Of a stretch of 64,000 nucleotides of DNA, positions 1 through 16,187 are shown in pieces. Each line of letters begins with the position of its first letter. Within the stretch, counting starts at the first letter, position 1. A model generated the notes under the pieces. That model had not been told where the DNA came from. It saw only the letters and a list, made by a program, of their open reading frames with translations, and ran no database searches. Position numbers and translations under genes: made by a program. This DNA comes from an uncultured Cellvibrionaceae bacterium (GTDB lineage Bacteria > Pseudomonadota > Gammaproteobacteria > Pseudomonadales > Cellvibrionaceae), in assembly GCA_964581625.1 (NCBI GenBank), contig CAZOPE010000013.1, positions 1,833 through 65,832 of the forward strand, in the 5' to 3' direction.

Positions 1-98
1 TCATTTATTACTGTGGCAAATTCAATCTCATTCGAGATTCGTCGAATGAGATTGAATTTCATAGTATTTGAGATTTGTAAATTAAGTTCATAAGACAT
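1..98 (-). CDS. Putative cognate immunity protein (CdiI-like), 5' part only, runs off window edge
   Basis: ATG at 98-96 directly abuts the toxin stop (TAAATG); open to the window edge (MSYELNLQISNTMKFNLIRRISNEIEFATVIN...). Position after a CdiA-type toxin is the standard immunity slot. Confidence 0.65.
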   Translation of the reverse strand, partial: MSYELNLQISNTMKFNLIRRISNEIEFATVIN

Positions 99-3000
99 TT
101 AGTAGCTCTTCATATAAACAACACCATTTTTTATAACGTATAAAGCCTTTAAATTTGGCACAGGCTTTTCATAAATAATTTTATAAACATCATTAGCGGT
201 AAAATCGCCTTTAGCCCTACTTAAATTAACTACAATTACCTGCGCTTGCTTTGAAACATTAACTTTGTCGTTAATTGACATTTGTACACTTGTGATCGAA
301 TCAGTGTTTGGTGAATATACATCTGCAAATTCCCCGTTGAATTTCAGGTCAGGATCCGGCATGCCCTTAGGAACTTGCCCTTCTGGCAATTGCTCCACAT
401 CAAAACCATGTTTAGATAAAATATCTGCAGATTCGTTTTCAAGCCTAAACCCTTCACTTTTTTGAGGATCTTTTTCTTTTAAATAGTCTTTAGGCTGTCC
501 TTTCAAAGCTCCCGGCTTAGGATCTACACGCTTTTCTCCCCAAGAACCCAAATCAAGTATTTTATCTCCATCAAATTTATCCTTTCCTACATCAAGATAT
601 TTATAAATAGAGTAACCCGATGCAACAACACCCACGACCGTAACAACTATCCAAGTTATACCCTTTGAGCTATGTGCCTCTAAGTCATTTTTATAGCGAG
701 GATCTTTATTGGTCTCGTCTGTAGTCTCAAACGAATTACCATATAAATATGCAACAGCTCCCGTTCCAATACCCTCTTCTAGCTTTTCTTTCGCATCTAG
801 CGCTTCCGAAGCGCCCGGTATTGCATCTATTGCAGCCTTAGCTAGCTCAGCGCCTTTTTTACCCGTATAAGCAATAGTACTCTTTAACGGAGCCAATATA
901 GGTTCGTCTAAAAGAACCTTGACGGAATCCCTCGCTATATCACCTACCTGCTCAATTCTTATATTGGCTTTACCTGTGTATTCAACTACTTTCGAGCTAA
1001 GCCCCGCCATTCTTTCCTTATTGGCAATATATTCCTCATTATTCCAACCTCCTGTGACCTCTCGACCCGACATGTTATTTAAAACTTTATCGTTTAAATA
1101 AAGCTTATTGAATTCACCAATACTTGCGAATATACCTAAGTTTCGTTGAGCAGTAACTTCCGCCTCTATCGCCGAATCAGAATACCCTAAAGCTTTCAAA
1201 CCAGTTCTTAACTCAATCTCTGCTGCGTTGGCACCACATAGAACAACATCATTGCTCTTGCAGCCAACCAATCCCATACCATGCATGACAGAACCAACAT
1301 GAGCAATTTTTTCTAATGATTCCTTATAACTCTGTGCCGTCATACCTGCACTTGCGGCCGCTGCATTGACATCGCCACCTGCCGCAAAAGCAATAATCCC
1401 TGCTAAAAACTTCGATAGATCGACGCCATTTGCACCAAGATAACCAAGTGTGGAGCCTATGTTAGTAGGGGTTATTTTATTAGGCTCACTAAGGATCTGG
1501 CCGCCAGTTCCAGTTGCCTTTGATTCCAAGATATCGACTGCCACTTGAGCAACTACCGCTCCACCAGCACCAGAAGGACAAGCATCTTTAAAATCAGCAT
1601 CACTTAACTTGGCTGTTAGCCCTTGAGTCAAACAACCCATTGCCGCATGAGCAATATATTTACTTGCTTCATTTAAAGTTGTGGAGTTTGAAATTTTGTC
1701 TGTAAGTTTTTGCCCAATCGTATTTACCGCATAAGTCGCGAGCGTTTGTTTAAAGGCGTTGCGATAATCTTCAGAATTCCCACCATTAATGGTGACCGAA
1801 ACTCCCGCAGTAACTACAGAATGAGTAACGGCCTGATAAGCCTGATTAACAAAGGCAAGCTGCGGCGTCTCTTTAACTTGGGCTTTATCAAAAAACTCAA
1901 GATCAACATACTCGTCAAGCGCACTCAACGCTCCCGCCGTTGCCATAGAGATAGCCAGATTTTTAAGGCTTTCACTGCTCGACATATTTTTCAATGTTTG
2001 CTCAATCGAGTTGCCAGCCAATAAGCTGCTAGCCGCTTGCACCTCAAGCGTTGTAAATCCGGCGCTCATAGCGGATGACAAAAAGCTTTGACCAGATAGA
2101 CTCGCTCCACCACTTGCAACAGCAATTACTATGGTTAGTAACGCCATGGCCGCTGGGCTTAAGCTTCTGTCCACATTGCGAATATGCGTATAGGCTTCGG
2201 TGACCTTAGAAAAATCGACTATTTGATTAAGAGGAACGAGATTTCCTTGCGCATTCTTAAATAGCGTTCGCCCTTCGTAGATGTCTGCCATCCACATTGT
2301 ATCGGGCATTTTTTTGTATTCATCAATTTGGTCTTTGAGGTTGGCGCCCTCTCTACCTGCATATTCAATATCTACACCCAGCAAAGCTTCTACCGCTAAA
2401 CCGCCCACAATGGCATTTGGAATACCTGTTTCTTTTACGTACTCCTCATGTACCGTTTTAATGGTCCAATTGCCTTTTCTAACGGTATCTAAATAGTGCT
2501 GACTGTTTTCCTTGGTAATGAGCAAGCGCACTTTGCCGTTGGTAGCTTTAATTTGTGTACCTTCGCTGCTGGTAATTTTTGCGCCTTTTAGCTCAACTGC
2601 ACCGGTGTTTGTTTCTAATAAAATCCCTTTACCTGCACTGAGTACGCTGCGAATGGCAAAGCTTTCAAAATCGCTACCTGTGCCCGTTGTTCTGCCAATT
2701 TTGTCTACGCGATTGGATTGGAAGTGGCCTTGTTCATCGGCAATATAAATACCGTGCTTGGCGAGCAACTCTATACCGCCCTCGGTACTGTGCAGTTCCG
2801 AGGCAGTCATGGTGATGCTGCCGCCCGCTATAAGCGTGAGCATTTGTTTGGCAGTAAGCTTTGATTGCATTAACTCAAAGCTGCTTTTATTAATAACCCA
2901 ATTACCTTCTGTGGTGGTGCTTTGGCTATTGGTTGCTACTGGCGCTAATACAAGGTCGCCATAGGCATCAAGCGTAAGCGCCCCGAACAATGCATTTGAA

Positions 3001-4055
3001 GTACCTCCTTCGTAGGTAATGCCTTTACCACTGGTAATTTTGATATTTCCGGTTGCACTATCAAGAGTGGCAACTGCAGCTAAACGTGTGCCGGAACCAT
3101 CTTTGGATTGATAAGGAAGCACCAAGGTTTTGTTGATAACATCGCCGCGCGTTGTACGAATATCCAAATTATTGGTGGCTTTTATTTGACCCGACACATT
3201 GAGAAACATATTGCCGGCAATGAGTTCAAGGTTGCCAGAGCCATTGATAGTGCCGGCATTTTTTATATTGTTTATTGAATTAATAACTGTTTGGTAATTT
3301 TCGTTTCCTAAGGCGCTTATGACGACACCTTTGTGAATTTCCAGATCGTTAAATGCAGTACTTAATCCAAATTGGATATAGTGGCCTTCTGGTTTGGTGG
3401 CCAATGTTGCAGAATTTAAATAGACAACAGGAATAATGACTTCTGTACCATTGATGGTACGTTTCTCGGGCCAAATCATGTTGTTGGTGATGGTGTCTTG
3501 CGGGGTTAAAGGCGTTCCAAATTTTTTGGATGTATTCAGCCCAAACTTAATACCCGCTGCGAAGAGTTCATCGTTTTGGTTCTGCTCAAACGCTTTTTTA
3601 GTGGTCGCGTTAAGCAGTAACCCTGCTTTGTCAATAAGTGAGCGGGCTAGCAGAAGATTTAACTGCGCGCGAATCAAACGCTGTTGTACAAACTCATCAC
3701 CAATAACTAGCGTTGTATCCGGTAATGATTCTTGCGTGGGGGATAATTGTGTATAGGCATTGGCAATCGTAACGCCTGATTGGGTGTCTACTTGTAAATA
3801 TCCTGGCCGCGCATACATTGCCCCGCCCGGTTTGCCTGTTGCCCTATATAACGGGCTTTTAAGTACTTGCGAGAAATCATCGTTGCTAAGCATGGTGGCA
3901 GCAATTGCCACCGAGGGTAAGCATATTTGCAAAATGAGGAAATACGCCATAAAGGCTGCGATAAAACGCTTCCATGCTCGCACAGGGTTTCCCTTAAATT
4001 TTTTAACCTTGCGCACAGGCACAGCAAAAGTGTTTTTAGAGTTATTGAATTTCAT
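99..4055 (-). CDS. CdiA C-terminal-half-like polymorphic toxin: signal peptide, FHA-2-type region, DUF637/pre-toxin region, C-terminal PD-(D/E)xK tRNase-type toxin
   Basis: Likely start ATG 4055 (RBS AAGGA) rather than TTG 4073. Signal peptide ...ILQICLPSVAIA. CdiA-like motifs GDEFVQQRLIRAQL and MIWPEKRTINGTEVIIPVVYL. DUF637-like SLSPAAMALLTIVIAVASGG...LKNLAISMATAGAL. C-terminus LENESADILSKHGFDVEQLP..PDPDLKFNGEFADVYSP..INDKV..QAQVIVVNL resembles B. pseudomallei 1026b CdiA-CT. Confidence 0.85.
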   Translation of the reverse strand: MKFNNSKNTFAVPVRKVKKFKGNPVRAWKRFIAAFMAYFLILQICLPSVAIAATMLSNDDFSQVLKSPLYRATGKPGGAMYARPGYLQVDTQSGVTIANAYTQLSPTQESLPDTTLVIGDEFVQQRLIRAQLNLLLARSLIDKAGLLLNATTKKAFEQNQNDELFAAGIKFGLNTSKKFGTPLTPQDTITNNMIWPEKRTINGTEVIIPVVYLNSATLATKPEGHYIQFGLSTAFNDLEIHKGVVISALGNENYQTVINSINNIKNAGTINGSGNLELIAGNMFLNVSGQIKATNNLDIRTTRGDVINKTLVLPYQSKDGSGTRLAAVATLDSATGNIKITSGKGITYEGGTSNALFGALTLDAYGDLVLAPVATNSQSTTTEGNWVINKSSFELMQSKLTAKQMLTLIAGGSITMTASELHSTEGGIELLAKHGIYIADEQGHFQSNRVDKIGRTTGTGSDFESFAIRSVLSAGKGILLETNTGAVELKGAKITSSEGTQIKATNGKVRLLITKENSQHYLDTVRKGNWTIKTVHEEYVKETGIPNAIVGGLAVEALLGVDIEYAGREGANLKDQIDEYKKMPDTMWMADIYEGRTLFKNAQGNLVPLNQIVDFSKVTEAYTHIRNVDRSLSPAAMALLTIVIAVASGGASLSGQSFLSSAMSAGFTTLEVQAASSLLAGNSIEQTLKNMSSSESLKNLAISMATAGALSALDEYVDLEFFDKAQVKETPQLAFVNQAYQAVTHSVVTAGVSVTINGGNSEDYRNAFKQTLATYAVNTIGQKLTDKISNSTTLNEASKYIAHAAMGCLTQGLTAKLSDADFKDACPSGAGGAVVAQVAVDILESKATGTGGQILSEPNKITPTNIGSTLGYLGANGVDLSKFLAGIIAFAAGGDVNAAAASAGMTAQSYKESLEKIAHVGSVMHGMGLVGCKSNDVVLCGANAAEIELRTGLKALGYSDSAIEAEVTAQRNLGIFASIGEFNKLYLNDKVLNNMSGREVTGGWNNEEYIANKERMAGLSSKVVEYTGKANIRIEQVGDIARDSVKVLLDEPILAPLKSTIAYTGKKGAELAKAAIDAIPGASEALDAKEKLEEGIGTGAVAYLYGNSFETTDETNKDPRYKNDLEAHSSKGITWIVVTVVGVVASGYSIYKYLDVGKDKFDGDKILDLGSWGEKRVDPKPGALKGQPKDYLKEKDPQKSEGFRLENESADILSKHGFDVEQLPEGQVPKGMPDPDLKFNGEFADVYSPNTDSITSVQMSINDKVNVSKQAQVIVVNLSRAKGDFTANDVYKIIYEKPVPNLKALYVIKNGVVYMKSY

Positions 4056-4056
4056 T

Positions 4057-7000
4057 TTAAATTCCTTTTTCAAATGCAGCTAACAGATCTAAAAACTTGG
4101 CTTTAAGTTCAGCAAAACCGTCAACAACAATATCCCATACGGATTTTGTTTCTGTTGTTTCTGGAAATTCATACCGCGCCGTGTTCGCCTCAGGTACATG
4201 CCCAGGATTTAAGTACTGGTATTTAGCCGTCGTAGTTACCCATAAGCCATCATCACTTGGAAACTGCGCAATACTGATCAACTTTTTCTCAGCATAAGAT
4301 CCCTTGGATAAATCATTTGATAGCCTCGCAAGAGTTTCTTTTTTGTAGGCGGCCACAAAGCTTTCTTTAGCTTGATCTAGTGGGTTTTGGTTGAATGCAA
4401 TGAAGTTGGCGGGCGATCCGTCCAATTTCCCTGATACCGCGAAAATAGTGCGCTCAATGGTCTCTGCTACAGTCTCGCCCAAGGGGTTGGTATTGATGGT
4501 ATTAATTTCAGCACAGACCGGAATTACCGCTGAGTTTTGTTGACCCGGGGTATTTGATCGGCACCGTTCATTGGTAATCACTAAGGTTTTTTTCAAGTAG
4601 TAATTTTCTCGCTCTAGAATTACTCCTTTACTTCTGACCAGAGCGCCCTCACCTTTGAACTGAACATCGTTATCAACAATAAAATAACTCGTATTGTTTT
4701 CGAACCCTTTTTGGGTGGCGATGCTATCTCCATTAAAAATAGTGGCGAGATTATTTAGATCATCGAACTTAAAAAAAGTGCTCGCAGCTGAATGCATGAC
4801 TGCTGCCGGAGAATATACGTATAAGCGCGCTTCAAGATTTTTGCTTTGGGTTAGGGTTGTGTTTCCCGCCCCGTCAGATGTTTGTGTAACAACACCTTGC
4901 TCATTAACAACATCACCCAGCGCATACATAAAATAACGTTCGTTGTGTACTTGAGGCGCAATCAAAACCATTGCGCTATTTACGCCATTATTTTCTACTG
5001 ACATGCTCGCTGACGAGTTAAGGATGTAACCACCCGCATTCACTTCCAACCGATTTAATGCTGAGATTGATACTGTTGTTGCACTGGCACTATCTTCTTT
5101 AGGCGTTAAGGTGCCAAATTTATAAACATCAAAACTCGCATTGATATTTTCAACATGACGTTTGGCTTTTAAGATGACTTTATCGCCAAAAACATAAGCT
5201 TCTTTGGTGCGTGCTTTTTTAGCGGGCGTTTGAGAGCCGTCAATCTTCGGCAATATAAATTTATCGAAGGTGCTCAGTTGTTGTGTGTATGCCGACGGTT
5301 TTAGTATCCAATAGTTTTCTGGAAGGTTCTCATAGGGTGTTGCCCATCCGTTGCGAATGCTACCGTTTTTACTGTTGAGGTATACATTTACACCGGCGAT
5401 GCTGCCTCCGAAGCGGTTATTAAGATCGCTTGCAGCCGTTAGTGTGACATTCGTAAAACCTTGAATAATATTTTGGTTGTCGACAATGCCTTCTGCAGCC
5501 AAATACAAATTGGTTTCTAATGGTTGTGCGGATTGCACACACACTGCATCAGCACAATTCATTACACCAAGGTTAATAATATCTTTTGCCGCTATAGCCT
5601 CTATATGCCCTGCTACAATGGAGGACGTAACATTGCTTTGTATGTTGCCCGTAGAAACAATTTTAATTTTATGATCGGACTCTACTGTTCCATTGATAAT
5701 GAGATGCCCATTCGTATTATCCAGTGTTGCCAGCTCAATACGCTCGCTAGCAAGTTTGAACTCGCCTTTGTCTATGAAGCTGGCTTGTAGATCTGAATGA
5801 GTGGAAAGCTGGCTATTGATTGTGAGTGGCGATGCAGCAACAATTTTAATGGCTCCCGACCTGATGTTTCCATCAACGGTGGCCATAGGTGCATTTGTAA
5901 TTGCATTAAAAGAAAGTACATTAAAGTTGCTGTAGGCTACTTTGGTTTCACCGGCAACTATGTTTACACTTCCGGTTCCCACCTGCTTATCGCCATTGTC
6001 ATCTAATACATATCCATTGCTAAACAAGTGCGCTTTTTGTTGCGTGTTAATTGCTATGAATGCATCGTTTTTTACAGTGCTGACAGTTTTACCTAATAAC
6101 TGAACCTGCGCTGTAGGGGCATTTAATTTAGTAATGCTTATGCTACCGGATGCAGTCAAATCTCCCACTTGCGTACTGCTTGCATTCAATGGGCTAACTG
6201 GCTGCGCAGCAGCCAAGGTTACGCGGCCAACATTTGCAAAATCACAATAGAGACATTTAATTTGTGCGTTGGGTGTACGGTTGATTAGCAGTACATCTGC
6301 AGCCGCGCCAACAATCTCCAAGGTGCTATTAAGCGTTAATGCCTGAGCATCTATTACAATGAGTTTGGCCGCAGGAGAACCTGTAGCGCTTTTATCGACA
6401 TTCAGGATTTTTAAGGGTTGCCCCACCGTAAAACTTGTAAAAGCGTTGTAGCTTATGCCAGCAGCATTCGGTGGAGCCAATACCACCAGATCATTCAATT
6501 CATCTGCCGCGCGCAGCACTTTTGTCTGGGTGCCTAGCGGGCTATAGTCTGGCGATAAAGACTCCGTTGGCGCTTTTGCGTTAAATAGCGATTCCACAAT
6601 CAAGGGTTGGCTAGCAGCAAATTGTTGCAATCCACCCCGGTCTACAGCTCGTGCACTTAAATTGAATATTCCCGGTTTTGGAGGCGTCCATTGCATTTCA
6701 TAAGGTGGCGCTGTGATTAGCTGACCAATAGGTACTCCATTCGCAAGGAACACAACCTGTGCCGCGTTATTTTCGTTGTCAGTTACTTTTGCAATCAACT
6801 TAATAGACCTACCTTCCTGAACACGTTCATGCGCCAGAGGAGAGGTTAAACTAATCGCTGGTGCACTATTGTTATTAACCTGAATTGTGGCTACGCGCGA
6901 TGTGATTTTTTTCCCTCCACTAACAACAGCACTCGCGGTGATAAGGTAGGTTCCCACTTGCGATGGCCGCCAAAACTTCAAAGCGCCTGTACTGTCTGTT

Positions 7001-9804
7001 GCAAGACCCGAGAGCAAAACATTATTCGCATAAAATTCCACGGGTGGTGTACTGCCATCAGCGGTGCGCCAGATATCTCCTATTGAAGTCTCAACATCGG
7101 CGTAAAGTGCAAATTGCTGTCCAAGGGTGCCCGTCTGTTGGCGATCAGGAGACGGTATCTTCAGGTCTACCACATTATCTGCAGTGCCCAAACTAACTTT
7201 GATTGTTTTTACGGTTTCATAAGAACATGTAGCAGGTTGAATTTGGCATGCTTTTATTGAGTATTTATAGGTTCCTGCTTTTAGGTTAAATGTTTTGGCA
7301 AGCTCCAGACCTCTGTAGATTTCTTTATCTCCCTCCATAAGTACAAAATAACCTGCAGGTGTAGCACTGCTCCAACGCAACGTAAATTTTCCATCTGAAT
7401 CTATACCAGCCGGTAAATTTTCTACGTCTTCGGCACTCAATCGCACTGAACCTAAAACACTAACGTTTACCGGAACTGAACTGGTTTGAACGCCGCTTGT
7501 GTTCATCACTACTGCTTTAACGACATACTCTCCGCCCTCTGACGGCCTCCAGGTTAAAACGTAGGGCCCGGTGTTAAATGACTTTCCATTAATTAATTCA
7601 CCATTCGCATAAAACTTTACCCATAAAACATTGTTAATATTCCCAACCACATTTGCGATCAGCGAGAGATTTTCTCCCAGCTGAATAGATGTTTGGCTTT
7701 GAACCGGCGACACAAGATTTATGGATAATTTATCGGAGGGTGCAAACACTATAGGTGCGGCAGTAGTCCAACCGGAGCACAGCGTGTCGAAAATACAAGC
7801 TTTCACGCGATAGGTATAACTTTTTCCTGCAGTAACCGATGTGTCGCTATAGGCGTTTAACACGAGTTTGTCTGAGACGCGTTTGCCATTCACTTCTAAA
7901 ATTTCGCCATTACGTTCCAGTGTGTAAGTAGCAGAGCCCAATGTCACAGGCCAGTTAATGCTGATTGAATTGCCGCTTACCGCTGTTGTAATTTCGCTAG
8001 GGGCGAAGGGTGCGTATTTCAATTCAATGGTGGTTTCTGCCACCACGCTAGTCTTTCCACTACCGTCCAAAAGCTTTAGTTCCAACTTGTGAATGCCTGG
8101 AGCAGCTAGATAATCTGAAACATAATTATGGCGATTGATATTGCAATAGCCTTCCGCTTTTATTCCGTTATCGTAAAGACATACATTGCCAGGATAGTTG
8201 TTGAACATTTGTAGGGAGAGCTTGCAGCCTGAACCACTGCATCCTTGTAGCATTGCTTTAATATCCGCTACGGTTTGTTCCTTACCCAACACACCAACTT
8301 GCGCAACCAACGCACCAGTGGGCAATGTACCTTTGCGCAATTGATAAATACGACTGCCTGATAAATCTAAAGTCCCAGAACTTGACCCGTTTAAAATAGT
8401 TGAGTCAGGACAGAAAATAATTTTGTTGTCTTGAAATATACAAGCATCCGCTTGCGGTAAAGACCATGTAAGGGTCGGTCTACAACCTGCCTGCGTTACG
8501 GGATTATAAGTACACTCACTAGGCTTAGCTGTCAGTGAATAACCCTGACTTGTATAAGTCGTTGTATACAATGTAAGAGTTGAAATTTCATATAATTGTC
8601 CTTCCACTTTTGCACGAAGAGAATAAGTTGTTCCACCTGCATTTACTGGTAAGGATTTCGTAAAAGTATTGGGCGTAGCTTCCCCAGAAGTTCCTAAAAA
8701 TGCCCATTCTTGACCATCTTTATAAAGACTAACGCCCATGTACCCACCAGTATGCGAGTAGGTGACATTCACCGTACATGTATTGGTGTTGTTGGGAATA
8801 CAGGGGTTTTGAGAACCACTGGCGACAATGAGAGAGCCGGTTGGAGGTTTTACAGTTTTTACTGTAGCGGATGCCAGTAATTTATCTGAGGTACTGGGTC
8901 CGTTGATAAGTTTGAATTGCGTACCCGGCGGGCTATTAACAGGGATTTCTAATTGACTTTCGTTGGAACAAATTAATTTTGAATTATTTTTATAGAGGCA
9001 CGGAGTGTAATCGGCAGACACTTTCCAGCTTACTCGAGTTAAACACGTTGTTGCAGGGTGAATGATGTCGCAACGCTCAGGAGTAACGCTGAATGTAACA
9101 TCTTTAAAGCTACCCTTTAAATTACTCGTAGCAATTGTTCGTATTCCAGACGGCTCTTTAGCGCGAATTTCAAAAACAGATGGATTTGCAGTTAAGGGAA
9201 CAGAAACGTTACCCTGATAAGGACCTGCAGGCGCGCAAGCAAGCTCAGTTGTAGTAGCTCCATCTATTTTATATATACAAGCAGGAAAATCGCCGGTAAA
9301 TTCCCATGCGACTTGGCCGCTGCAAGTTGTGTTATTTGGATCAATAGAACAGACAGATGAAGACTGTGTAATTTTTCCTTCGCTGGGCACAAAAACATAA
9401 AAGCGTTTGCGAATATTAGCTTCACCTAGAAGAATGTAGGTGTAAGTTCCAACAGATAAATCTTTAATATCTTTAGATACACTCCCATTGTTAGATGATT
9501 TATTTTGTGACGCGATTAATGTCGTGCCTTGATAGAGACTAAGAGACCCTGGTACATTTAACGAACCGGAAACCCTTAAAAAAATCTCCTTTGCATTTTT
9601 TTGTAATAGGGTCGGCAAAACAGTAATTCTCGCGTTTAATTTTAGAAGCGGCCATATCGAAAGCGTCAAAACCCAATACAGTAGATGTGATTGCAGTATT
9701 AAGCTCTGGATAATCAAGAAGTATGGGCTTAGAGAGAGATTTCGCAGAGTTACAACCGTAGGGATTGCACGCTCTAACCGCAAATTCGTAAGTTTCCAAA
9801 TCAT
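4057..9804 (-). CDS. Large Ig/FN3-repeat protein with internal TPS (haemagglutination-activity) domain and FHA-like repeats; probably the 3' part of a frameshifted gene starting at 10528
   Basis: Cys-paired repeats, an FN3 unit (SYTYRVKACIFDTLCSGW), Ig-like units (VKFYANGELI..GPYVLTWRP..GEYVVKAVV), TPS motif LAPPNAAGISYNAFTSFTV near 6440-6500, FHA-like LNNRFGGSIAG. The first ~75 aa of the ORF look non-protein-like and lack a signal peptide. Confidence 0.8.
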   Translation of the reverse strand: MIWKLTNLRLERAIPTVVTLRNLSLSPYFLIIQSLILQSHLLYWVLTLSIWPLLKLNARITVLPTLLQKNAKEIFLRVSGSLNVPGSLSLYQGTTLIASQNKSSNNGSVSKDIKDLSVGTYTYILLGEANIRKRFYVFVPSEGKITQSSSVCSIDPNNTTCSGQVAWEFTGDFPACIYKIDGATTTELACAPAGPYQGNVSVPLTANPSVFEIRAKEPSGIRTIATSNLKGSFKDVTFSVTPERCDIIHPATTCLTRVSWKVSADYTPCLYKNNSKLICSNESQLEIPVNSPPGTQFKLINGPSTSDKLLASATVKTVKPPTGSLIVASGSQNPCIPNNTNTCTVNVTYSHTGGYMGVSLYKDGQEWAFLGTSGEATPNTFTKSLPVNAGGTTYSLRAKVEGQLYEISTLTLYTTTYTSQGYSLTAKPSECTYNPVTQAGCRPTLTWSLPQADACIFQDNKIIFCPDSTILNGSSSGTLDLSGSRIYQLRKGTLPTGALVAQVGVLGKEQTVADIKAMLQGCSGSGCKLSLQMFNNYPGNVCLYDNGIKAEGYCNINRHNYVSDYLAAPGIHKLELKLLDGSGKTSVVAETTIELKYAPFAPSEITTAVSGNSISINWPVTLGSATYTLERNGEILEVNGKRVSDKLVLNAYSDTSVTAGKSYTYRVKACIFDTLCSGWTTAAPIVFAPSDKLSINLVSPVQSQTSIQLGENLSLIANVVGNINNVLWVKFYANGELINGKSFNTGPYVLTWRPSEGGEYVVKAVVMNTSGVQTSSVPVNVSVLGSVRLSAEDVENLPAGIDSDGKFTLRWSSATPAGYFVLMEGDKEIYRGLELAKTFNLKAGTYKYSIKACQIQPATCSYETVKTIKVSLGTADNVVDLKIPSPDRQQTGTLGQQFALYADVETSIGDIWRTADGSTPPVEFYANNVLLSGLATDSTGALKFWRPSQVGTYLITASAVVSGGKKITSRVATIQVNNNSAPAISLTSPLAHERVQEGRSIKLIAKVTDNENNAAQVVFLANGVPIGQLITAPPYEMQWTPPKPGIFNLSARAVDRGGLQQFAASQPLIVESLFNAKAPTESLSPDYSPLGTQTKVLRAADELNDLVVLAPPNAAGISYNAFTSFTVGQPLKILNVDKSATGSPAAKLIVIDAQALTLNSTLEIVGAAADVLLINRTPNAQIKCLYCDFANVGRVTLAAAQPVSPLNASSTQVGDLTASGSISITKLNAPTAQVQLLGKTVSTVKNDAFIAINTQQKAHLFSNGYVLDDNGDKQVGTGSVNIVAGETKVAYSNFNVLSFNAITNAPMATVDGNIRSGAIKIVAASPLTINSQLSTHSDLQASFIDKGEFKLASERIELATLDNTNGHLIINGTVESDHKIKIVSTGNIQSNVTSSIVAGHIEAIAAKDIINLGVMNCADAVCVQSAQPLETNLYLAAEGIVDNQNIIQGFTNVTLTAASDLNNRFGGSIAGVNVYLNSKNGSIRNGWATPYENLPENYWILKPSAYTQQLSTFDKFILPKIDGSQTPAKKARTKEAYVFGDKVILKAKRHVENINASFDVYKFGTLTPKEDSASATTVSISALNRLEVNAGGYILNSSASMSVENNGVNSAMVLIAPQVHNERYFMYALGDVVNEQGVVTQTSDGAGNTTLTQSKNLEARLYVYSPAAVMHSAASTFFKFDDLNNLATIFNGDSIATQKGFENNTSYFIVDNDVQFKGEGALVRSKGVILERENYYLKKTLVITNERCRSNTPGQQNSAVIPVCAEINTINTNPLGETVAETIERTIFAVSGKLDGSPANFIAFNQNPLDQAKESFVAAYKKETLARLSNDLSKGSYAEKKLISIAQFPSDDGLWVTTTAKYQYLNPGHVPEANTARYEFPETTETKSVWDIVVDGFAELKAKFLDLLAAFEKGI

Positions 9805-10528
9805 TTAATCCAATTCCCTGCATCCCCTGTTCAAAAGCCGTCCACTGAAACGTGTTTGTTGTCCATCCATTTACTTTGGATATCTTCCAAGTATCACTAC
9901 CAACCTTGCGCGACATAAATTCATAGTACAAATCTGACGCATACGGATCATCATTTACTATATACGACCACGTAAAAAGAATAGAAGCATCATCTTTATG
10001 AAAAATGTACCTGCTCGATGTCTCTTCGAGCACCTTTGCAGGTATGTACCCCCAAACATCATATATTTGGAAATAACTAAATGCAGCAGTAGGTGCTTTT
10101 CGTGGGTCACGAATCGTAACAACATCACTTTCTACAGGTGTACTCCATGTATAGTAAGATTTATTTACTGAGATTTTATATTTATACGTTCCGGCTTTAA
10201 CTGGTTTTGGACGTCGCGTGAACCAATCCCATACTTGTCGCTCTCCCTGAAAAGTCCCCACAAATTGCCAGCTACCATTATTGTATTGTTCCCATAACTG
10301 AAACTTGAACTGGCTGGTGTCATTTCCAGCAGCTTCAACAACAAAGCTGACCCATACATCACTCCCCCCGTAACTGACTTTCGCTCCATTTTCTAATGGA
10401 GAACTTACTTGAACAGTAGCAGAGACGATGTAGGGAAGTTGAGCATAAGAACTAACACTTACAAAAAGCGTTAATAAAAAAAAGAAGCACGAAAAGTGAC
10501 GAAGCGATAGATATTGAAGCGGAGGCAT
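9539..10528 (-). CDS. Secreted FN3/Ig-like protein; likely N-terminal part of the 4057-10528 gene
   Basis: ATG 10528 with AGGGA RBS; Sec signal MPPLQYLSLRHFSCFFFLLTLFVSVSSYA; FN3-like TYEFAVRACNPYGCNS; overlaps the next ORF by 266 nt across homopolymer runs. Confidence 0.7.
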   Translation of the reverse strand: MPPLQYLSLRHFSCFFFLLTLFVSVSSYAQLPYIVSATVQVSSPLENGAKVSYGGSDVWVSFVVEAAGNDTSQFKFQLWEQYNNGSWQFVGTFQGERQVWDWFTRRPKPVKAGTYKYKISVNKSYYTWSTPVESDVVTIRDPRKAPTAAFSYFQIYDVWGYIPAKVLEETSSRYIFHKDDASILFTWSYIVNDDPYASDLYYEFMSRKVGSDTWKISKVNGWTTNTFQWTAFEQGMQGIGLNDLETYEFAVRACNPYGCNSAKSLSKPILLDYPELNTAITSTVLGFDAFDMAASKIKRENYCFADPITKKCKGDFFKGFRFVKCTRVS

Positions 10529-10750
10529 TTTTTCATCCCTAAAAATAATCAATTGTTAGAACAATTCTATTCGGATTTTGCTTTGCTGATTCAGTAAATT
10601 TTTTAATCTACACATACTTTGATTAACATTCAGAATGCAGCACGAAACTTCGATGCATCTCAACATCATCTGATACGGGATTCTGAATTTGCGAACCTTA
10701 TGCAAACGTCCATCTGCAATCCAGTCGTTTAAAAGAACCAAACAATAATT

Positions 10751-10965: not shown

Positions 10966-13900
10966 TTATTCTGCTGGCTTTTTGGGAAACCAGCGCTGCG
11001 CAAACTGAAACACCACGACAAAGAAAACAGGCACGAAGAAGATAGCAAGTACAGTTGCCGACAACATTCCCCCGAACACACCGGTGCCAATGGCGTTTTG
11101 GCTGCCTGACCCCGCGCCGGTGCTAATTACCAGCGGCGTTACGCCCAGCATAAAGGCGAGCGAGGTCATAATGATGGGGCGCAAGCGCATGCGCACGGCA
11201 TCCATAGTCGCATCAAACAAACTCATGCCTTGTTCATGCAATGATTTGGCAAACTCTACAATTAAAATTGCGTTTTTGGATGCAAGGCCAATGGTCGTTA
11301 ACAGCCCCACTTGGAAATAAACATCGTTGGAGAGGCCGCGGCCTATTGCAAAAAGTACGGCGCCGAGCACGCCGAGCGGAACAACCAACATTACGGCAAA
11401 GGGTACTGACCAACTTTCATAAAGCGCTGCTAAACATAAGAACACCACCAACATCGACACTGCATAAAGCAGCGGCGCTTGGTTGCCGGACTGGCGCTCT
11501 TGAAACGACATGCCCGTCCACTGGTAGCCTACGCCTGCCGGTAATTTCTTAATGATTTCCTCAGCAGCCTGCATTGCATCTCCCGAGCTGACACCGGGTG
11601 CGCCTTGGCCGTTGATATTGATGGAAGCAACGCCGTTGTAACGCTCTAACCGGGGCGACCCGAAAATCCAGCGGCCTGTAGTAAAAGCGGAGAACGGCAC
11701 CATCTCGCCTTTATTGTTACGCGCGTACCAGTTGCTAACATCTTCCGGCAGCATGCGAAATTGAGCATCGCCTTGCACGAACACCTTTTTCACTCGCCCC
11801 CGGTCAATAAAATCATTCACATAAGATGCCGCCCAAGCCGTATTGAAAAGACTATTGATGTCGCTGAGCGAAACGCCTAAAGCGGCTGCCTTTTCTTGAT
11901 TCACATCCAGCTTGAATTGCGGCGTATCGTCTTGGCCGTTAGGGCGAACATTAACAAGACGCGAATCTTTCGAGGCCATACCTATGAATTGGTTGCGCGC
12001 TTCAATCATTGCTTCGTGACCAAGGCCACCGAGATCTTGTAATTGCAAATTGAAACCCGTTGATGTTCCTAATTGAGTAATTGCAGGGGGCACAAAGGGG
12101 AACACCATGGCTTCTTTGATTTTGGAGAAGGTGCCCATGGCGCGCTTAGCAACACTTTGAACATCTTGCCCAGAATGCGTACGCTCACTCCAATCTTTTA
12201 AGCTGACAAACGCAATGCCATTATTTTGGCCGCGGCCACTAAAGCTAAAACCTATGACTGAGAACACAGAACGAATGTTGTCTTTTTCTGTTTCCAAATA
12301 ATGTTTTTCAATTTGATTCATCACTTCAATAGAACGCTCTTTAGTAGCGCCAACTGGCAGTGACATTTGTGTATACATGTAGCCTTGGTCTTCGTCCGGT
12401 AAAAACGATGAGGGCAAGCGCGTAAACAGCAACCCCAGTACAACCACAATCGCAACGTAAATCATCATAAAGCGGCTGGTGCGACCAAGCATGGTGCGCA
12501 CGCTGGATTGGTAACGCGTTGTGGCTTTATTGAAATTGCGATTAAACCAACCGAAGAAACCTTTTTTCTCATAGTGATCGTGATCAACAGGCTTTAGCAA
12601 CGTGGCACAAAGTGCAGGTGTGAGCGTTAAAGCCACGATAACGGACAACAACATGGCTGACACAATAGTGATTGAGAATTGACGATAGATAACACCGGTT
12701 GAACCACCAAAAAATGCCATGGGCACAAACACAGCAGCTAACACTAACGCAATGCCAATTAATGCACTGGTAATTTGCCCCATGGATTTTCGCGTGGCTT
12801 CACGCGGAGACAACCCCTCCTCCGCCATTACCCGCTCGACGTTTTCAACCACCACAATGGCATCGTCCACTAGCAAGCCAATGGCCAACACCATGGCAAA
12901 CATGGTAAGCGTATTAATGGAAAATCCACACACCGATAGCACACCAAAAGTACCTAACAACACAATCGGTACAGCAATTGTTGGAATTAAGGTTGCGCGG
13001 AAATTTTGCAGGAATAAATACATTACCAAAAATACAAGGATGATCGCTTCAATCAGTGTTTCAACCACAGCTTTAATGGAAAGGCGAACAAAAGGCGTGG
13101 TGTCCATGGGATAAACCACTTCCATTCCCTGCGGAAAAAATTGCGAGAGTTCCGTGATACGCGCGCGTACTGCATCGGCAGTTTCCAAGGCGTTTGCACC
13201 AGCAGCGAGGGTAATTGCCATACCGGTTGCCGGGCGATTGTTGTACTCGGTTTCGAATTGATAATTCTCACCACCTAGCTCCACCCGCGCGACATCGCCC
13301 AACCGAATTTGCGAGCCATCGTTATTCACGCGCAACAAAATATTTTTAAATTGCTCAGGCGTGGACAAGCGCGTTTGCACCACAATACTCGCGTTTACTT
13401 GCTGACCGGGAAGCGATGGTGTGCCGCCTAATTCGCCCGCGGCAATTTGCGCGTTTTGTGCTTTGATCGCGGCGGTAACATCGGTTGCGGTTAAATTAAA
13501 GGTGGCGAGTTTGTTTGCATCCAACCACACGCGCATGGCGTATTGCGAACCAAACAAGGTGATTTGCCCAACCCCATTTACGCGGCTGAGTTGGTCTTGC
13601 ACGTTGGCGGCAACGTAATCGGCAATGTCGTATTTATCCATACGTCCATCGGCAGATACAAAACCAATAATCAACAAAAAGCCCGCTGACGATTTAGTCA
13701 CGCGAATACCTTGCTGCTGGACTTCTTGTGGCAACAACGGCATTACGGTTTGTAATTTATTTTGCACTTGAACTTGTGCAATGTCGGGGTTGGTTCCCGC
13801 CAAAAAAGTTAGCGTCACACTACCCGACCCGCTGGATTCACTGGCAGACGACATGTATTGAACATTGTCGATTCCCGTTAAACCCTGCTCGATAATTTGA

Positions 13901-14085
13901 ATAACCGTATCTTGCACGGTTTGCGCCGATGCACCGGGGTAGTTGGCATTAATACTCACCGAGGGTGGCGCAACTTCTGGGTATTGAGCGATGGGCAACT
14001 TAAAAATAGAAAGCGCACCCGCCAGCATAATTAAAATTGCAATTACCCATGCAAACACCGGGCGATCAATAAAGAACTTCGCCAT
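10966..14085 (-). CDS. acrB: HAE1-family RND efflux permease (AcrB/MexB-like)
   Basis: [17 protein letters not shown] start, [43 protein letters not shown]; 1039 aa. Confidence 0.96.
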
Positions 14086-14090
14086 GCTAG

Positions 14091-15236
14091 TTACTCCCCG
14101 GTTTTAGTTGCAATTTTTGCGGGAACTGCTTTTACAGTTGCACCCGGTTTTGCCTTTTGCAAGCCTTCTACAATCACTTTCTCACCAACTGCCAAGCCTT
14201 CATCCACCAACCATTTGTCACCAACGGCGGTAGTCGTTTTAATGGAGCGCAGTTCAACTTTATTTTCTTTATTCACCACCAGCGTGGTTGCGCCCCCAGA
14301 GCGATCACGCGTGACACCTTGTTGCGGAACCAGAATCGCTTTTGAATGAACACCATCTTGCAATTCGGTGCGCACGAACATACCGGGCAGCAATAATTTA
14401 TCGGGATTGGGAAAGAGCGCGCGTAACACCACTGTGCCCGTTGATTCGCTAACACCCACTTCAGAGAACTGCAAACGGCCCTCTTGCGCATAACGGGAAC
14501 CATCACTTAACACCAGCTTGACCTTTGCCTCCCCCGGCGCAGAAAGCTTGCCGTTCATCATTTGACGGCGCAGCTTGAGCATTTCATCTACTGATTGGGA
14601 AACATCAACATAGATTGGGTCGAGCTGCTGAATCGTCGCCAACACCTGTGACTGCCCAGCACTGACGAGTGCTCCTTCCGTCACACTGGATTTACCGATA
14701 ACACCGCTGATTGGCGCAAGCACCTTGGTGTACTTGAGATTAATGCGCGCGTTTTCGACAGCCGCTTTACTAATTTCCAGATTCGCCTGCGCTTGGGAGA
14801 AGGCTGCCTGTACATCATCGAAATCTTGTTGGCTAATAGCTTTAGAGACAATCAAACTTTGGAAACGGGCGTTGCGGGCTTTTGCCGCCGAAAAGTTAGC
14901 GTCCGCTCGGGACTGTTCCGCTTGGGCGCTATTTAATGCAGATTCGAATGGCGCGGGGTCAATTTGGTACAAGGGAGTACCCGCTTTAACCTCGGCGCCC
15001 TCGGTAAATAAGCGCTTCTGGATAATGCCACTCACCTGCGGGCGAACTTCTGCTTTGCGGTAGGCAGAGGTACGGCCAGGTAACTCAGACGTAATGGTTG
15101 CCGCCGATTCGCTCACCACCACGACCCCCACTTCAACGGGCGGAGCATCGCCCCCCGCAGGAGCCTTGGGGCCGCACGCCGATAAGAGCCCGATGGATAC
15201 TGCCACTGAAAGGGTTAAATATTTGCTGCGCGACAT
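14091..15236 (-). CDS. acrA: RND membrane-fusion lipoprotein (AcrA/MexA-like)
   Basis: Likely start ATG 15236 (GAGG RBS); lipobox LLSAC; [22 protein letters not shown]; QQLDPIYVD. Confidence 0.93.
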
Positions 15237-15328
15237 GGGTACACCTCTTCCAAAAACGCGATCCCTATAAAAATGCCGGTCAAAAAAACCAGCATCAACT
15301 ATTGAGACAAGAACTATAAAATCAGGTA

Positions 15329-15352
15329 AACATACACCTATGAATGTATTAT
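15329..15352. promoter_or_regulatory. AcrR-like operator (acrA-proximal)
   Basis: AACATACACCTATGAATGTATTAT, 17/24 identical to the E. coli acrAB operator as recalled (TACATACATTTGTGAATGTATGTA). Confidence 0.5.
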
Positions 15353-15496
15353 CTATTACAGCCAATAAGTACGTCAGTTTCAACACAAATGATGAATATA
15401 TTCACAAACTTAACAATCTTTGCACATATTAACGCTGTTTAAATGGGCGACAGATTGTCTGGAGCATTGACGAAAGAATAGTCTATCACTATAAAA

Positions 15497-15520
15497 TACA
15501 TACATAATTGAATGTTTAGA
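15497..15520. promoter_or_regulatory. AcrR-like operator (acrR-proximal)
   Basis: TACATACATAATTGAATGTTTAGA, 18/24 identical to the recalled E. coli acrAB operator. Confidence 0.55.
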
Positions 15521-15545
15521 TTTGTTATAAACCTAAGGAAACTTT

Positions 15546-16187
15546 GTGGCACGTAAAACCAAAGAAGATGCACTTGAAACCCGCAACCAGCTGTTAGACG
15601 CGGCCGAGAGAGTATTTTTTGACAAAGGCTTTAGCCAAACCAGCCTCATGGATATTGCAGAGGCGGCTGGGCTCTCCCGTGGGGCTATTTATTGGCACTT
15701 TAAAAACAAAAGCGATTTATTCGAAGCCATGGCAGACCGTATTCGCCTACCGCTCGAAAACCTAACCGACGCCTGCGCCGACGAAAAAGAACCCAATCCA
15801 TTAGGTAAGCTGCGTGACTTTTGGATTCAGGTTCTTAAAGAAACCACCCGCAACCCGCGCCGCAAACGTGTCCTCAGCATTCTGTTCTTTAAATGCGAGC
15901 TAAACAGCGAAGCCAAACAGTTGGAAATCCGCCGCCAAACCGCGACCTTGGAATATATTCAGGGAATTGAGCAATGCTTGAAAAACGCTATAGACAAAGG
16001 ACAACTCCCAACCAACCTCAACGTGCACCAGGCTGCCATTGCAAACCACGCATTGATCACGGGTTTAATCAGCAATTGGTTATTCCTTCCTGGCAGTTTT
16101 GATTTGGATAAATACGCGGAAGCCATGGTGGATAGTTACTTGTTTATGCTGAAGAATAATGTGGGCTTACAGGAGGGCGAGATCTAG
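15546..16187 (+). CDS. acrR: TetR-family repressor (AcrR/TtgR-like)
   Basis: MARKTKEDALETRNQLLDAAERVF..GLSRGAIYWHFKNKSDLF; divergent from the RND operon. Confidence 0.9.
   Translation: MARKTKEDALETRNQLLDAAERVFFDKGFSQTSLMDIAEAAGLSRGAIYWHFKNKSDLFEAMADRIRLPLENLTDACADEKEPNPLGKLRDFWIQVLKETTRNPRRKRVLSILFFKCELNSEAKQLEIRRQTATLEYIQGIEQCLKNAIDKGQLPTNLNVHQAAIANHALITGLISNWLFLPGSFDLDKYAEAMVDSYLFMLKNNVGLQEGEI

Follow-up and report, generated by a model that had tools for sequence, protein, structure and literature searches.

The stretch of DNA analysed here (64,000 nt, hereafter the window; C13:1833-65832, C13 being contig CAZOPE010000013.1 of assembly GCA_964581625.1) comes from an uncultured bacterium of the Cellvibrionaceae, whose source genome is a 3.7 Mb draft of 104 contigs (93.6% complete). 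It contains a locus related to CdiA, the exoprotein of contact-dependent growth inhibition (CDI), that is divided over two genes: gene A encodes a protein that has the fold of a domain for two-partner secretion (TPS), and gene B corresponds to the C-terminal half of a CdiA and brings its own signal peptide. A, B and a small immunity-like open reading frame (ORF), together referred to as A-B-I, all lie on the minus strand, so that 'upstream' denotes higher coordinates, and follow one another from high to low coordinates (A from the ATG at 10528, B from the ATG at 4055, the ORF from 98; Table 1). We consider it probable that A-B-I is a conserved three-gene polymorphic-toxin module, which arose when the gene of a CdiA-type exoprotein was split just ahead of the filamentous haemagglutinin type 2 (FHA-2) region and which is exported independently of the outer-membrane transporter TpsB (CdiB in CDI systems). 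Its ancestry as a fission variant of CdiA-type polymorphic toxins is clear; the roles of A as filament or adhesin and of B as delivery and toxin subunit are putative, and it is plausible that both form one assembled two-chain CDI machine.

The relation of B to canonical CdiA rests on several lines of evidence. Using B residues 1-300 as a phmmer query, we found canonical CdiAs matched internally, in line with the mid-region motifs that an earlier, sequence-only reading of the window had recognized at the start of B. In P0157 (2485 aa), which has a Pfam TPS domain at 33-298, the match covers residues 1029-1194; in P0155 (2253 aa) it covers 832-1072, preceded by Fil_haemagg (457-505) and followed by Fil_haemagg_2 (from 1164), DUF637 (1513-1680) and PT-HINT. 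The domain order is the same in B and P0155; B thus matches in linear order that portion of canonical CdiA which starts shortly ahead of the FHA-2-type repeats, and by this comparison the split point maps to the conserved segment in front of these repeats and DUF637. The AlphaFold2 (AF2) model of B (12-sequence alignment, predicted local distance difference test (pLDDT) 68) agrees with the layout, showing a helical N-domain (helices 97-175) with a hairpin (193-212), a confident beta-helix at 226-515 and a helical DUF637. A Foldseek search of this model against the PDB returned no significant fold neighbour, and Pfam Fil_haemagg_2 matches weakly and in B homologues only. For the toxin domain, CdiA_C (PF18451) scores 25.0 bits on residues 1234-1310, just below the cut-off of 26.6 bits, and 45.6 bits on the B homologue of locus L001. 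The PDB entry matched by the same region, 4g6v, is annotated as 'Adhesin/hemolysin' only; we take it to be the CdiA-CT/CdiI complex of B. pseudomallei 1026b, in which the toxin is a tRNase. The proposed succession of FHA-2-like part, DUF637, pretoxin region and C-terminal toxin, with an immunity-like ORF downstream, was recovered by Pfam (DUF637), the AF2 model (beta-helix) and the 4g6v match. A TPS domain is absent from B by Pfam, phmmer and the AF2 model; the TPS fold sits on the separate protein A.

B appears to carry its own signals for translation and export. The stop codon of A (TAA, 4059-4057) is followed by a single base (4056) and then by the B ATG, so that stop and start are 1 nt apart and in different frames, and the B frame is blocked by a TAG 9 codons upstream of its ATG. 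Reading of the junction agreed with the earlier claim of a toxin gene with its own ribosome-binding site (RBS) and Sec-type signal peptide, the former being the AAGGA listed in Table 1, the latter predicted by a heuristic and by conservation across the B family. In the N-terminus, MKFNNSKNTFAVPVRKVKKFKGNPVRAWKRFIAAFMAYFLILQICLPSVAIAA/TM, a stretch with 10 K/R residues is followed by a hydrophobic core and an AxA site. This layout is common to all ~45 family N-termini inspected, bar one N-truncated record; a strict hydrophobicity cut-off is reached by 59 of 133 full-length members.

The two-gene arrangement is not peculiar to the window. Seven independent loci (the window, L001, L002/L003, L004, two pairs in L005, and L008) show the order of A, B with a signal peptide of its own, and a small ORF. 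Junction types differ among them, comprising the 1-nt spacer, a TAATG overlap and spacers of 12-100 nt, which carry AAGGA- or GAGGG-type RBSs where one is visible. L008 belongs to an isolate genome of Pseudoalteromonas luteoviolacea, and an Imm49 gene follows its B. We also scanned 277 genomes of the window's GTDB family. The B N-domain was matched in 38 of them, in ~35 cases in frames of 1170-1450 aa; three matches are weak and lie in canonical long frames. The A core, i.e. the module present in all A proteins, was found in 36 genomes at E<=1e-20, with near-complete overlap with the carriers of stand-alone B. In fact, in all 35 B carriers tested (13-14 genera) the A core lies immediately upstream of B on the same strand; the two exceptions to the pairing (A only; B fragment only) come from fragmented assemblies. 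No fused single ORF was found in close relatives. A conserved adjacent pair across the family rules out a strain-specific break, and the suggestion that the division is hard-wired, and not a nonsense break, holds over seven loci and ~35 genomes. Moreover, co-occurrence and adjacency argue that A and B probably work together.

B itself represents a large family. An exhaustive phmmer search with residues 1-300 (E<=1e-3) matched at least 202 clusters (50% identity representatives), and among the best 150 of the 202 nearly all members are ~1150-1650 aa long and matched at their own N-terminus. Each of the homologues with 37-64% identity (1158-1431 aa) carries a signal peptide and N-domain of its own, while the C-terminal domains vary by Pfam (Ntox21+HINT, PF24241, Endonuclease_NS_2, DUF4951); P0004 and P0005 are near-identical as far as the toxin boundary. 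Automated annotation labels such proteins only 'DUF637 domain-containing' or 'filamentous hemagglutinin'. Locus L005 (GCA_945882995.1, 6947-23483) holds two tandem A-B pairs (983+1160 aa and 1033+1347 aa), and the small ORFs strung out between them, one of which is a 63-aa fragment of Ntox21, resemble an array of orphan toxin and immunity modules. By its sequences the family has the features given for polymorphic toxins by Zhang et al. 2012 (PMC3482391): the trafficking region is conserved, the C-terminal toxins recombine, a putative immunity gene lies next to them, and orphan cassettes occur. The small ORF after B, which co-varies with the toxin, is read as a putative immunity gene. In the window it is truncated by the window start; in contig C13 it comprises 149 aa and is followed by one unrelated ORF and then rpsF. 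With the ORF behind the L001 homologue of B, whose toxin is of the same type, it shares 53% identity, and it has no match in a Pfam scan or a PDB search.

Gene A was assigned mainly by fold. Foldseek searches with the AF2 model, which is confident as far as ~residue 560, gave TPS domains as top matches throughout (Fha30, 1rwr, E 3.3e-9; HpmA, target-normalised TM-score (TMt) 0.75; also HxuA and EtpA). An hhalign comparison of the A profile with the TPS domain of the canonical CdiA P0157 reached a probability of 93% (E 3.3e-7), with the non-TPS part of canonical CdiA a weak repeat-type match only, and phmmer relates A to HpmA with E 0.0085. The profile of alignment A1, built from the A family, also matches TPS domains of canonical TpsAs that adjoin TpsB genes (E 1e-16 to 1e-7). 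Invariant in this alignment are the motifs CxxCxF..R.T, ENIN, NERY and SP, the first of which is common to the HpmA-type TPS domain in the phmmer alignment; the TPS secretion motifs NPNL and NPNGI (NPNL...NPNGI as defined in PMC5709968) are not conserved across the family. A homologue search with the A core had returned a single match, from a Moraxellaceae metagenome-assembled genome, and the A family was then gathered from the loci. By sequence comparison, colinearity of A plus B with CdiA can be drawn for the TPS fold and for all of B, not for the later part of A.

As corrections to the earlier reading, the TPS fold of the window A begins ~1340 residues in, after immunoglobulin (Ig)-like repeats and not directly behind the signal peptide, and A is frameshifted in the assembly. 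Its upstream frame is open over 10552..9539 (337 aa) and overlaps the 1915-aa frame (9804..4057); an intact A orthologue of 2207 aa in L002 is colinear with both. The shift occurs at a run of seven T, where the window reads KGDFF/LRVSGS and L002 KADFVRVEGS; a neighbouring A7 run (9596-9602, minus strand) is in frame and conserved in L002. The T7 frameshift could be phase variation, inactivation or a homopolymer sequencing or assembly error. The segment ahead of the core differs strongly between A proteins. It consists of ~1340 residues of Ig-like repeats in the window and in L002 and of ~300 residues of an unassigned family in the second A of L005; in the short A proteins of L001 and of the first L005 pair it is absent, and the TPS fold directly follows the signal peptide. 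Pfam reports Big_7 and weak Ig-like matches only on the window A. Open frames with an A core range from 723 to 5262 aa, the longest being found in a genome of the same genus (G058:C1:1250640-1252898), with up to ~4400 residues before the TPS fold. In the A of L004 (1542-9998, 2819 aa) the extension is longer again than in the window; it shows no more than faint or weak PKD, SpvB and FG-GAP matches, which precede Ig-like repeats shared with the window A. In P. luteoviolacea (L008, 7025-9982) extra unassigned sequence with a proline-rich tail lies C-terminal to the core; this A as called has no obvious signal peptide, a transposase is located just upstream and the 5' end may be disrupted.

The second unusual property of the locus is the missing transporter. 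No TpsB/CdiB gene is present near any of the seven loci in the flanks inspected, and neither a PF03865 search nor phmmer with CdiB fragments found a TpsB in the source genome, which has two Omp85 proteins only, one of BamA and one of TamA size. The same PF03865 search does find TpsBs in genomes G001 and G002, and in G003 a borderline Omp85-type match only. Two candidates for a linked transporter were discarded: the TpsB-like match in G002 (C19) is TamA/TamB, and the G003 match, located beside recQ, is an orphan Omp85 with a weak score. Among 34 carriers of the pair some TpsB occurs in 24 and none in 10, the latter including the complete single-contig genome G071 and three genomes of 100% completeness, G054, G058 and G034. 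TpsBs, if present, are encoded on other contigs or at a distance from the A-B pair and, where the neighbours were inspected, next to a canonical TpsA of their own. BamA-size and TamA-size Omp85 proteins are present in every genome checked. A missed TpsB gene is possible in the source genome, given its 93.6% completeness, and unlikely across ten genomes. Because no CdiB/TpsB gene is found next to any locus and none in the source genome, the canonical export logic of CDI does not apply to the A-B locus. The missing CdiB and the displaced TPS fold make the locus more unusual than the sequence-only reading had stated.

How the module might work can be outlined from these observations. Both chains would cross the inner membrane separately via Sec. 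A would act at the surface or in recognizing the target, a role that would account for the variability of its extension, and B would provide outer-membrane insertion and toxin delivery, like the half of CdiA that comprises FHA-2, pretoxin (PT) and C-terminal toxin (CT) regions. The two proteins may associate through the C-terminal helix/hairpin module of A and the helical N-domain of B. The outer membrane of the producer would be crossed without a dedicated TpsB, for which BamA/TamA and type II secretion are candidates, as is insertion of the FHA-2-like part by itself. A free-standing chain of the B type is plausible in the light of the observation that a C-terminal fragment of CdiA, once purified, inserts in vitro into membranes that contain the receptor and cleaves off its toxin unaided (PMC13625785); the same result speaks for the roles outlined here for A and B. 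We propose only tentatively, and with somewhat less than even expectation, that A and a separately Sec-exported B assemble in the envelope and cross the outer membrane without a dedicated TpsB, with receptor specificity residing on the swappable extension of A.

Different explanations of the locus have to be weighed against the three-gene module. One of them, a strain-specific broken cdiA whose single chain was cut by a nonsense mutation or frameshift into two pseudogene halves, would be in accordance with the 1-nt distance and differing frames of A stop and B ATG and with the further frameshift of A at the T7 run. However, B has its own RBS and signal peptide, the two-gene layout recurs with differing junctions in seven loci and ~35 genomes, and the members of the 202-cluster B family are nearly all stand-alone; the comparative data refute such a break, and we give it practically no weight. 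Hardly more credible is the assumption that A and B are functionally unrelated neighbours, A being an ordinary adhesin and B-I an independent Sec-dependent toxin-immunity pair. In its favour, no hidden Markov model (HMM) library assigns A a function, but presence and absence of both genes are coupled near-perfectly over the 277 genomes with strict adjacency and co-orientation, stop and start are tightly coupled or overlapping, and both parts trace to CdiA/TpsA ancestry; it is disfavoured above all by the co-occurrence of A and B.

Two further explanations concern the way of export. A diffusible, bacteriocin-like two-component toxin, consisting of B alone or of B together with A, would be released through type II secretion, in vesicles or on lysis, whereupon the variable extension of A would find the receptor and the FHA-2/DUF637 part of B would insert into the outer membrane of the target. 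A TpsB that could hold a filament at the surface is missing, the Sec signals of A and B are plain ones, the extension of A varies strongly between lineages, and a soluble CdiA C-terminal fragment enters receptor-containing membranes in vitro (PMC13625785). On the other hand, there is no conserved lysis or release gene next to the locus, and large beta-helical proteins of this kind are normally surface-attached. We regard this explanation as unlikely, while taking it more seriously than the other alternatives. Improbable to a greater degree is two-partner secretion with the transporter in trans, in which an unlinked TpsB or a housekeeping Omp85 protein (BamA/TamA) would recognize the TPS fold of A, and B would dock to A. 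A has indeed kept a genuine TPS fold, many carriers possess some TpsB, all genomes checked have the two housekeeping Omp85 types, and relaxed specificity of BcpB is documented (PMC10449530). This must be set against the ten carriers and the source genome without any TpsB, the canonical TpsA beside each inspected TpsB, the lack of conserved NPNL/NPNGI motifs in A and the internal TPS fold of long A proteins, which does not fit TPS-first threading.

Several observations also weigh against the three-gene module itself. The sequence-only reading had described the upstream gene as having a TPS domain and FHA-like repeats but no toxin. The TPS fold (by hhalign and structure) and the absence of a toxin were retained; searches of Pfam and NCBIfam gave no FHA repeats on A, and no match to the TPS family (PF05860) even at E<=10. 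Past the TPS fold, A shows no clear colinearity to the FHA-1/receptor-binding domain (RBD) part of canonical CdiA. By eye, B has no VENN-type motif (VENN, ELYN/NxxLYN): the equivalent site in the window B reads ...GMTAQSYKE..., with the toxin diverging after ...KDKFDGDK, and the relatives P0006, P0010 and P0011 have (Q/K/E)NNAL there. The C-terminal parts of the AF2 models of both A and B are of low confidence. A is frameshifted in the window assembly and also in the metagenome-assembled genome of L001, so the system may be off, phase-variable or mis-assembled in the source genome. Finally, we know of no export mechanism for a TPS fold without TpsB that lies behind 1300-4400 residues of other domains.

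Table 1. Features of the A-B-I locus in window coordinates
Feature	Position	Strand	Basis and remarks
Gene A, upstream frame	9539..10528	-	signal peptide MPPLQYLSLRHFSCFFFLLTLFVSVSSYA/Q at 10439-10528, then Ig-like sequence; colinear with N-terminus of L002 A
T7 run, frame shift of A	9578..9584	-	one T above open-frame need
Gene A, downstream frame (1915-aa ORF)	4057..9804	-	Ig-like repeats, TPS-fold beta-helix, C-terminal helical end; no toxin
Best-scoring Big_7 bacterial Ig domain, A N-terminal extension	6670..6861	-	Pfam PF17957, 64 bits, two stretches
A core module (846 aa), present in all A proteins	4060..6600	-	alignment A1; AF2 model ma78db3dec477; genome scans
TPS-fold domain, A core residues ~36-300	5701..6495	-	hhalign, Foldseek, phmmer
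Shine-Dalgarno-like AAGGA	4063..4067	-	7 nt upstream of B ATG, within end of gene A
Gene B (1318 aa), stand-alone 'C-terminal-half CdiA' with own signal peptide and C-terminal toxin	99..4055	-	
Predicted signal peptide, B residues 1-53	3897..4055	-	long K/R-rich n-region, hydrophobic core, AIA/A; heuristic and family conservation
B N-domain, residues ~54-225	3381..3896	-	carries GDEFVQQRLIRAQL and MIWPEKRTINGTEVIIPVVYL; homologous to canonical CdiA mid-region
B beta-helix, residues ~226-515, FHA-2-like position	2511..3380	-	AF2 model m26645fe18dbe, pLDDT >85 at 270-440
DUF637, B residues 662-826	1578..2072	-	Pfam PF04830, 70.7 bits, E 1.6e-19
C-terminal toxin domain, B residues ~1180-1318, probably of CdiA_C / Bp1026b tRNase type	102..518	-	PDB 4g6v, E 2.6e-10
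Immunity-like ORF, 5' part	1..98	-	ATG 98-96, directly after B stop (101-99); extends past window start

The surroundings of the locus add some further observations. Inside the 5' end of the immunity-like ORF (window 18-59) lies an inverted repeat of 18 bp (5 G-C pairs) with a 6-nt loop, which was flagged as terminator-like on the plus strand. The GC content is 37.6% at the toxin/immunity end (window 1-1000) and 39-46% over the remaining A-B locus, against 46-52% in the neighbouring efflux operon (11000-15000), a pattern consistent with horizontally exchanged modules. Directly upstream of A (window 10966-16187) are genes for a resistance-nodulation-division (RND) efflux pump (1039 aa) and a membrane-fusion protein (431 aa) together with a divergent TetR-like regulator. 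We saw no sign that this operon or its regulator is related to the toxin locus.

Compared to canonical CdiB/CdiA/CdiI systems (type Vb; E. coli EC93, Burkholderia BcpAIOB), the locus shares the mid-region motifs, the beta-helix with DUF637 and a pretoxin region behind it, an exchangeable toxin at the C-terminus (here probably related to the Bp1026b CdiA-CT), a putative immunity gene immediately after it, the presence of a TPS-fold beta-helix, and orphan modules (here in a relative). It differs in that two cistrons, both with a Sec signal, stand in place of the single polypeptide, a TPS domain is missing from the chain that bears the toxin, no CdiB is present in locus or genome, the TPS fold is without conserved NPNL/NPNGI and lies behind a long Ig-like extension, and VENN is missing in the window B. 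'CDI variant' therefore fits the ancestry better than the mechanism, because there is no CdiB, NPNL/NPNGI are not conserved and the TPS fold is internal. A core (~850 aa) and B (~1250 aa) together have a size like that of the 'Cluster III' short TpsAs with DUF637 from Xenorhabdus (~1900 aa, with TpsB and a putative immunity gene; PMC5709968) and of short Acinetobacter CdiAs (PMC6336857), with which they also share TPS fold, DUF637 and a small downstream gene; each of those proteins, however, is a single chain that has a canonical TPS domain at its N-terminus and a TpsB next to it.

Among published non-canonical cases, StbD of Citrobacter rodentium (bioRxiv 10.64898/2026.05.07.723447) comes closest, likewise an effector resembling CdiA in which the TPS domain is replaced, in a locus without cdiB. 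StbD shows that the delivery half of CdiA can recombine onto other export contexts. It is, however, one chain fused to a fimbrial tip adhesin in a chaperone-usher operon and inactive until fused to cdiBA, whereas in the A-B locus the TPS fold sits on a partner protein of its own and the layout is conserved widely. By analogy only, the Neisseria MafA/MafB/MafI system (PMC4287609) can be mentioned, in which a Sec-dependent polymorphic toxin with signal peptide has a partner gene before it and immunity genes and orphan cassettes after it. A sequence relationship was not found (no DUF1020 in B by Pfam), and MafA is a small lipoprotein, not a beta-helix. Full-text literature searches brought up StbD alone and no description of a two-gene, TpsB-less CdiA arrangement, which is weak evidence of absence.

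In the current model of CDI, a single chain threaded by CdiB stalls, and its toxin half waits in the periplasm. Here, in contrast, the delivery half has a gene to itself, complete with a signal peptide, in many genomes and without CdiB. If the system is active, the half comprising FHA-2, DUF637 and toxin can be deployed without being tied covalently to a TPS-led filament, TPS folds can have functions besides that of TpsB targeting, and an unrecognised outer-membrane route must exist; should the tentative assembly of A and B without a dedicated TpsB prove true, type V-like beta-helical proteins would in effect have a new way of export, or would export themselves. An active A-B pair would also offer a natural two-piece system for telling which functions of CdiA sit in which half.

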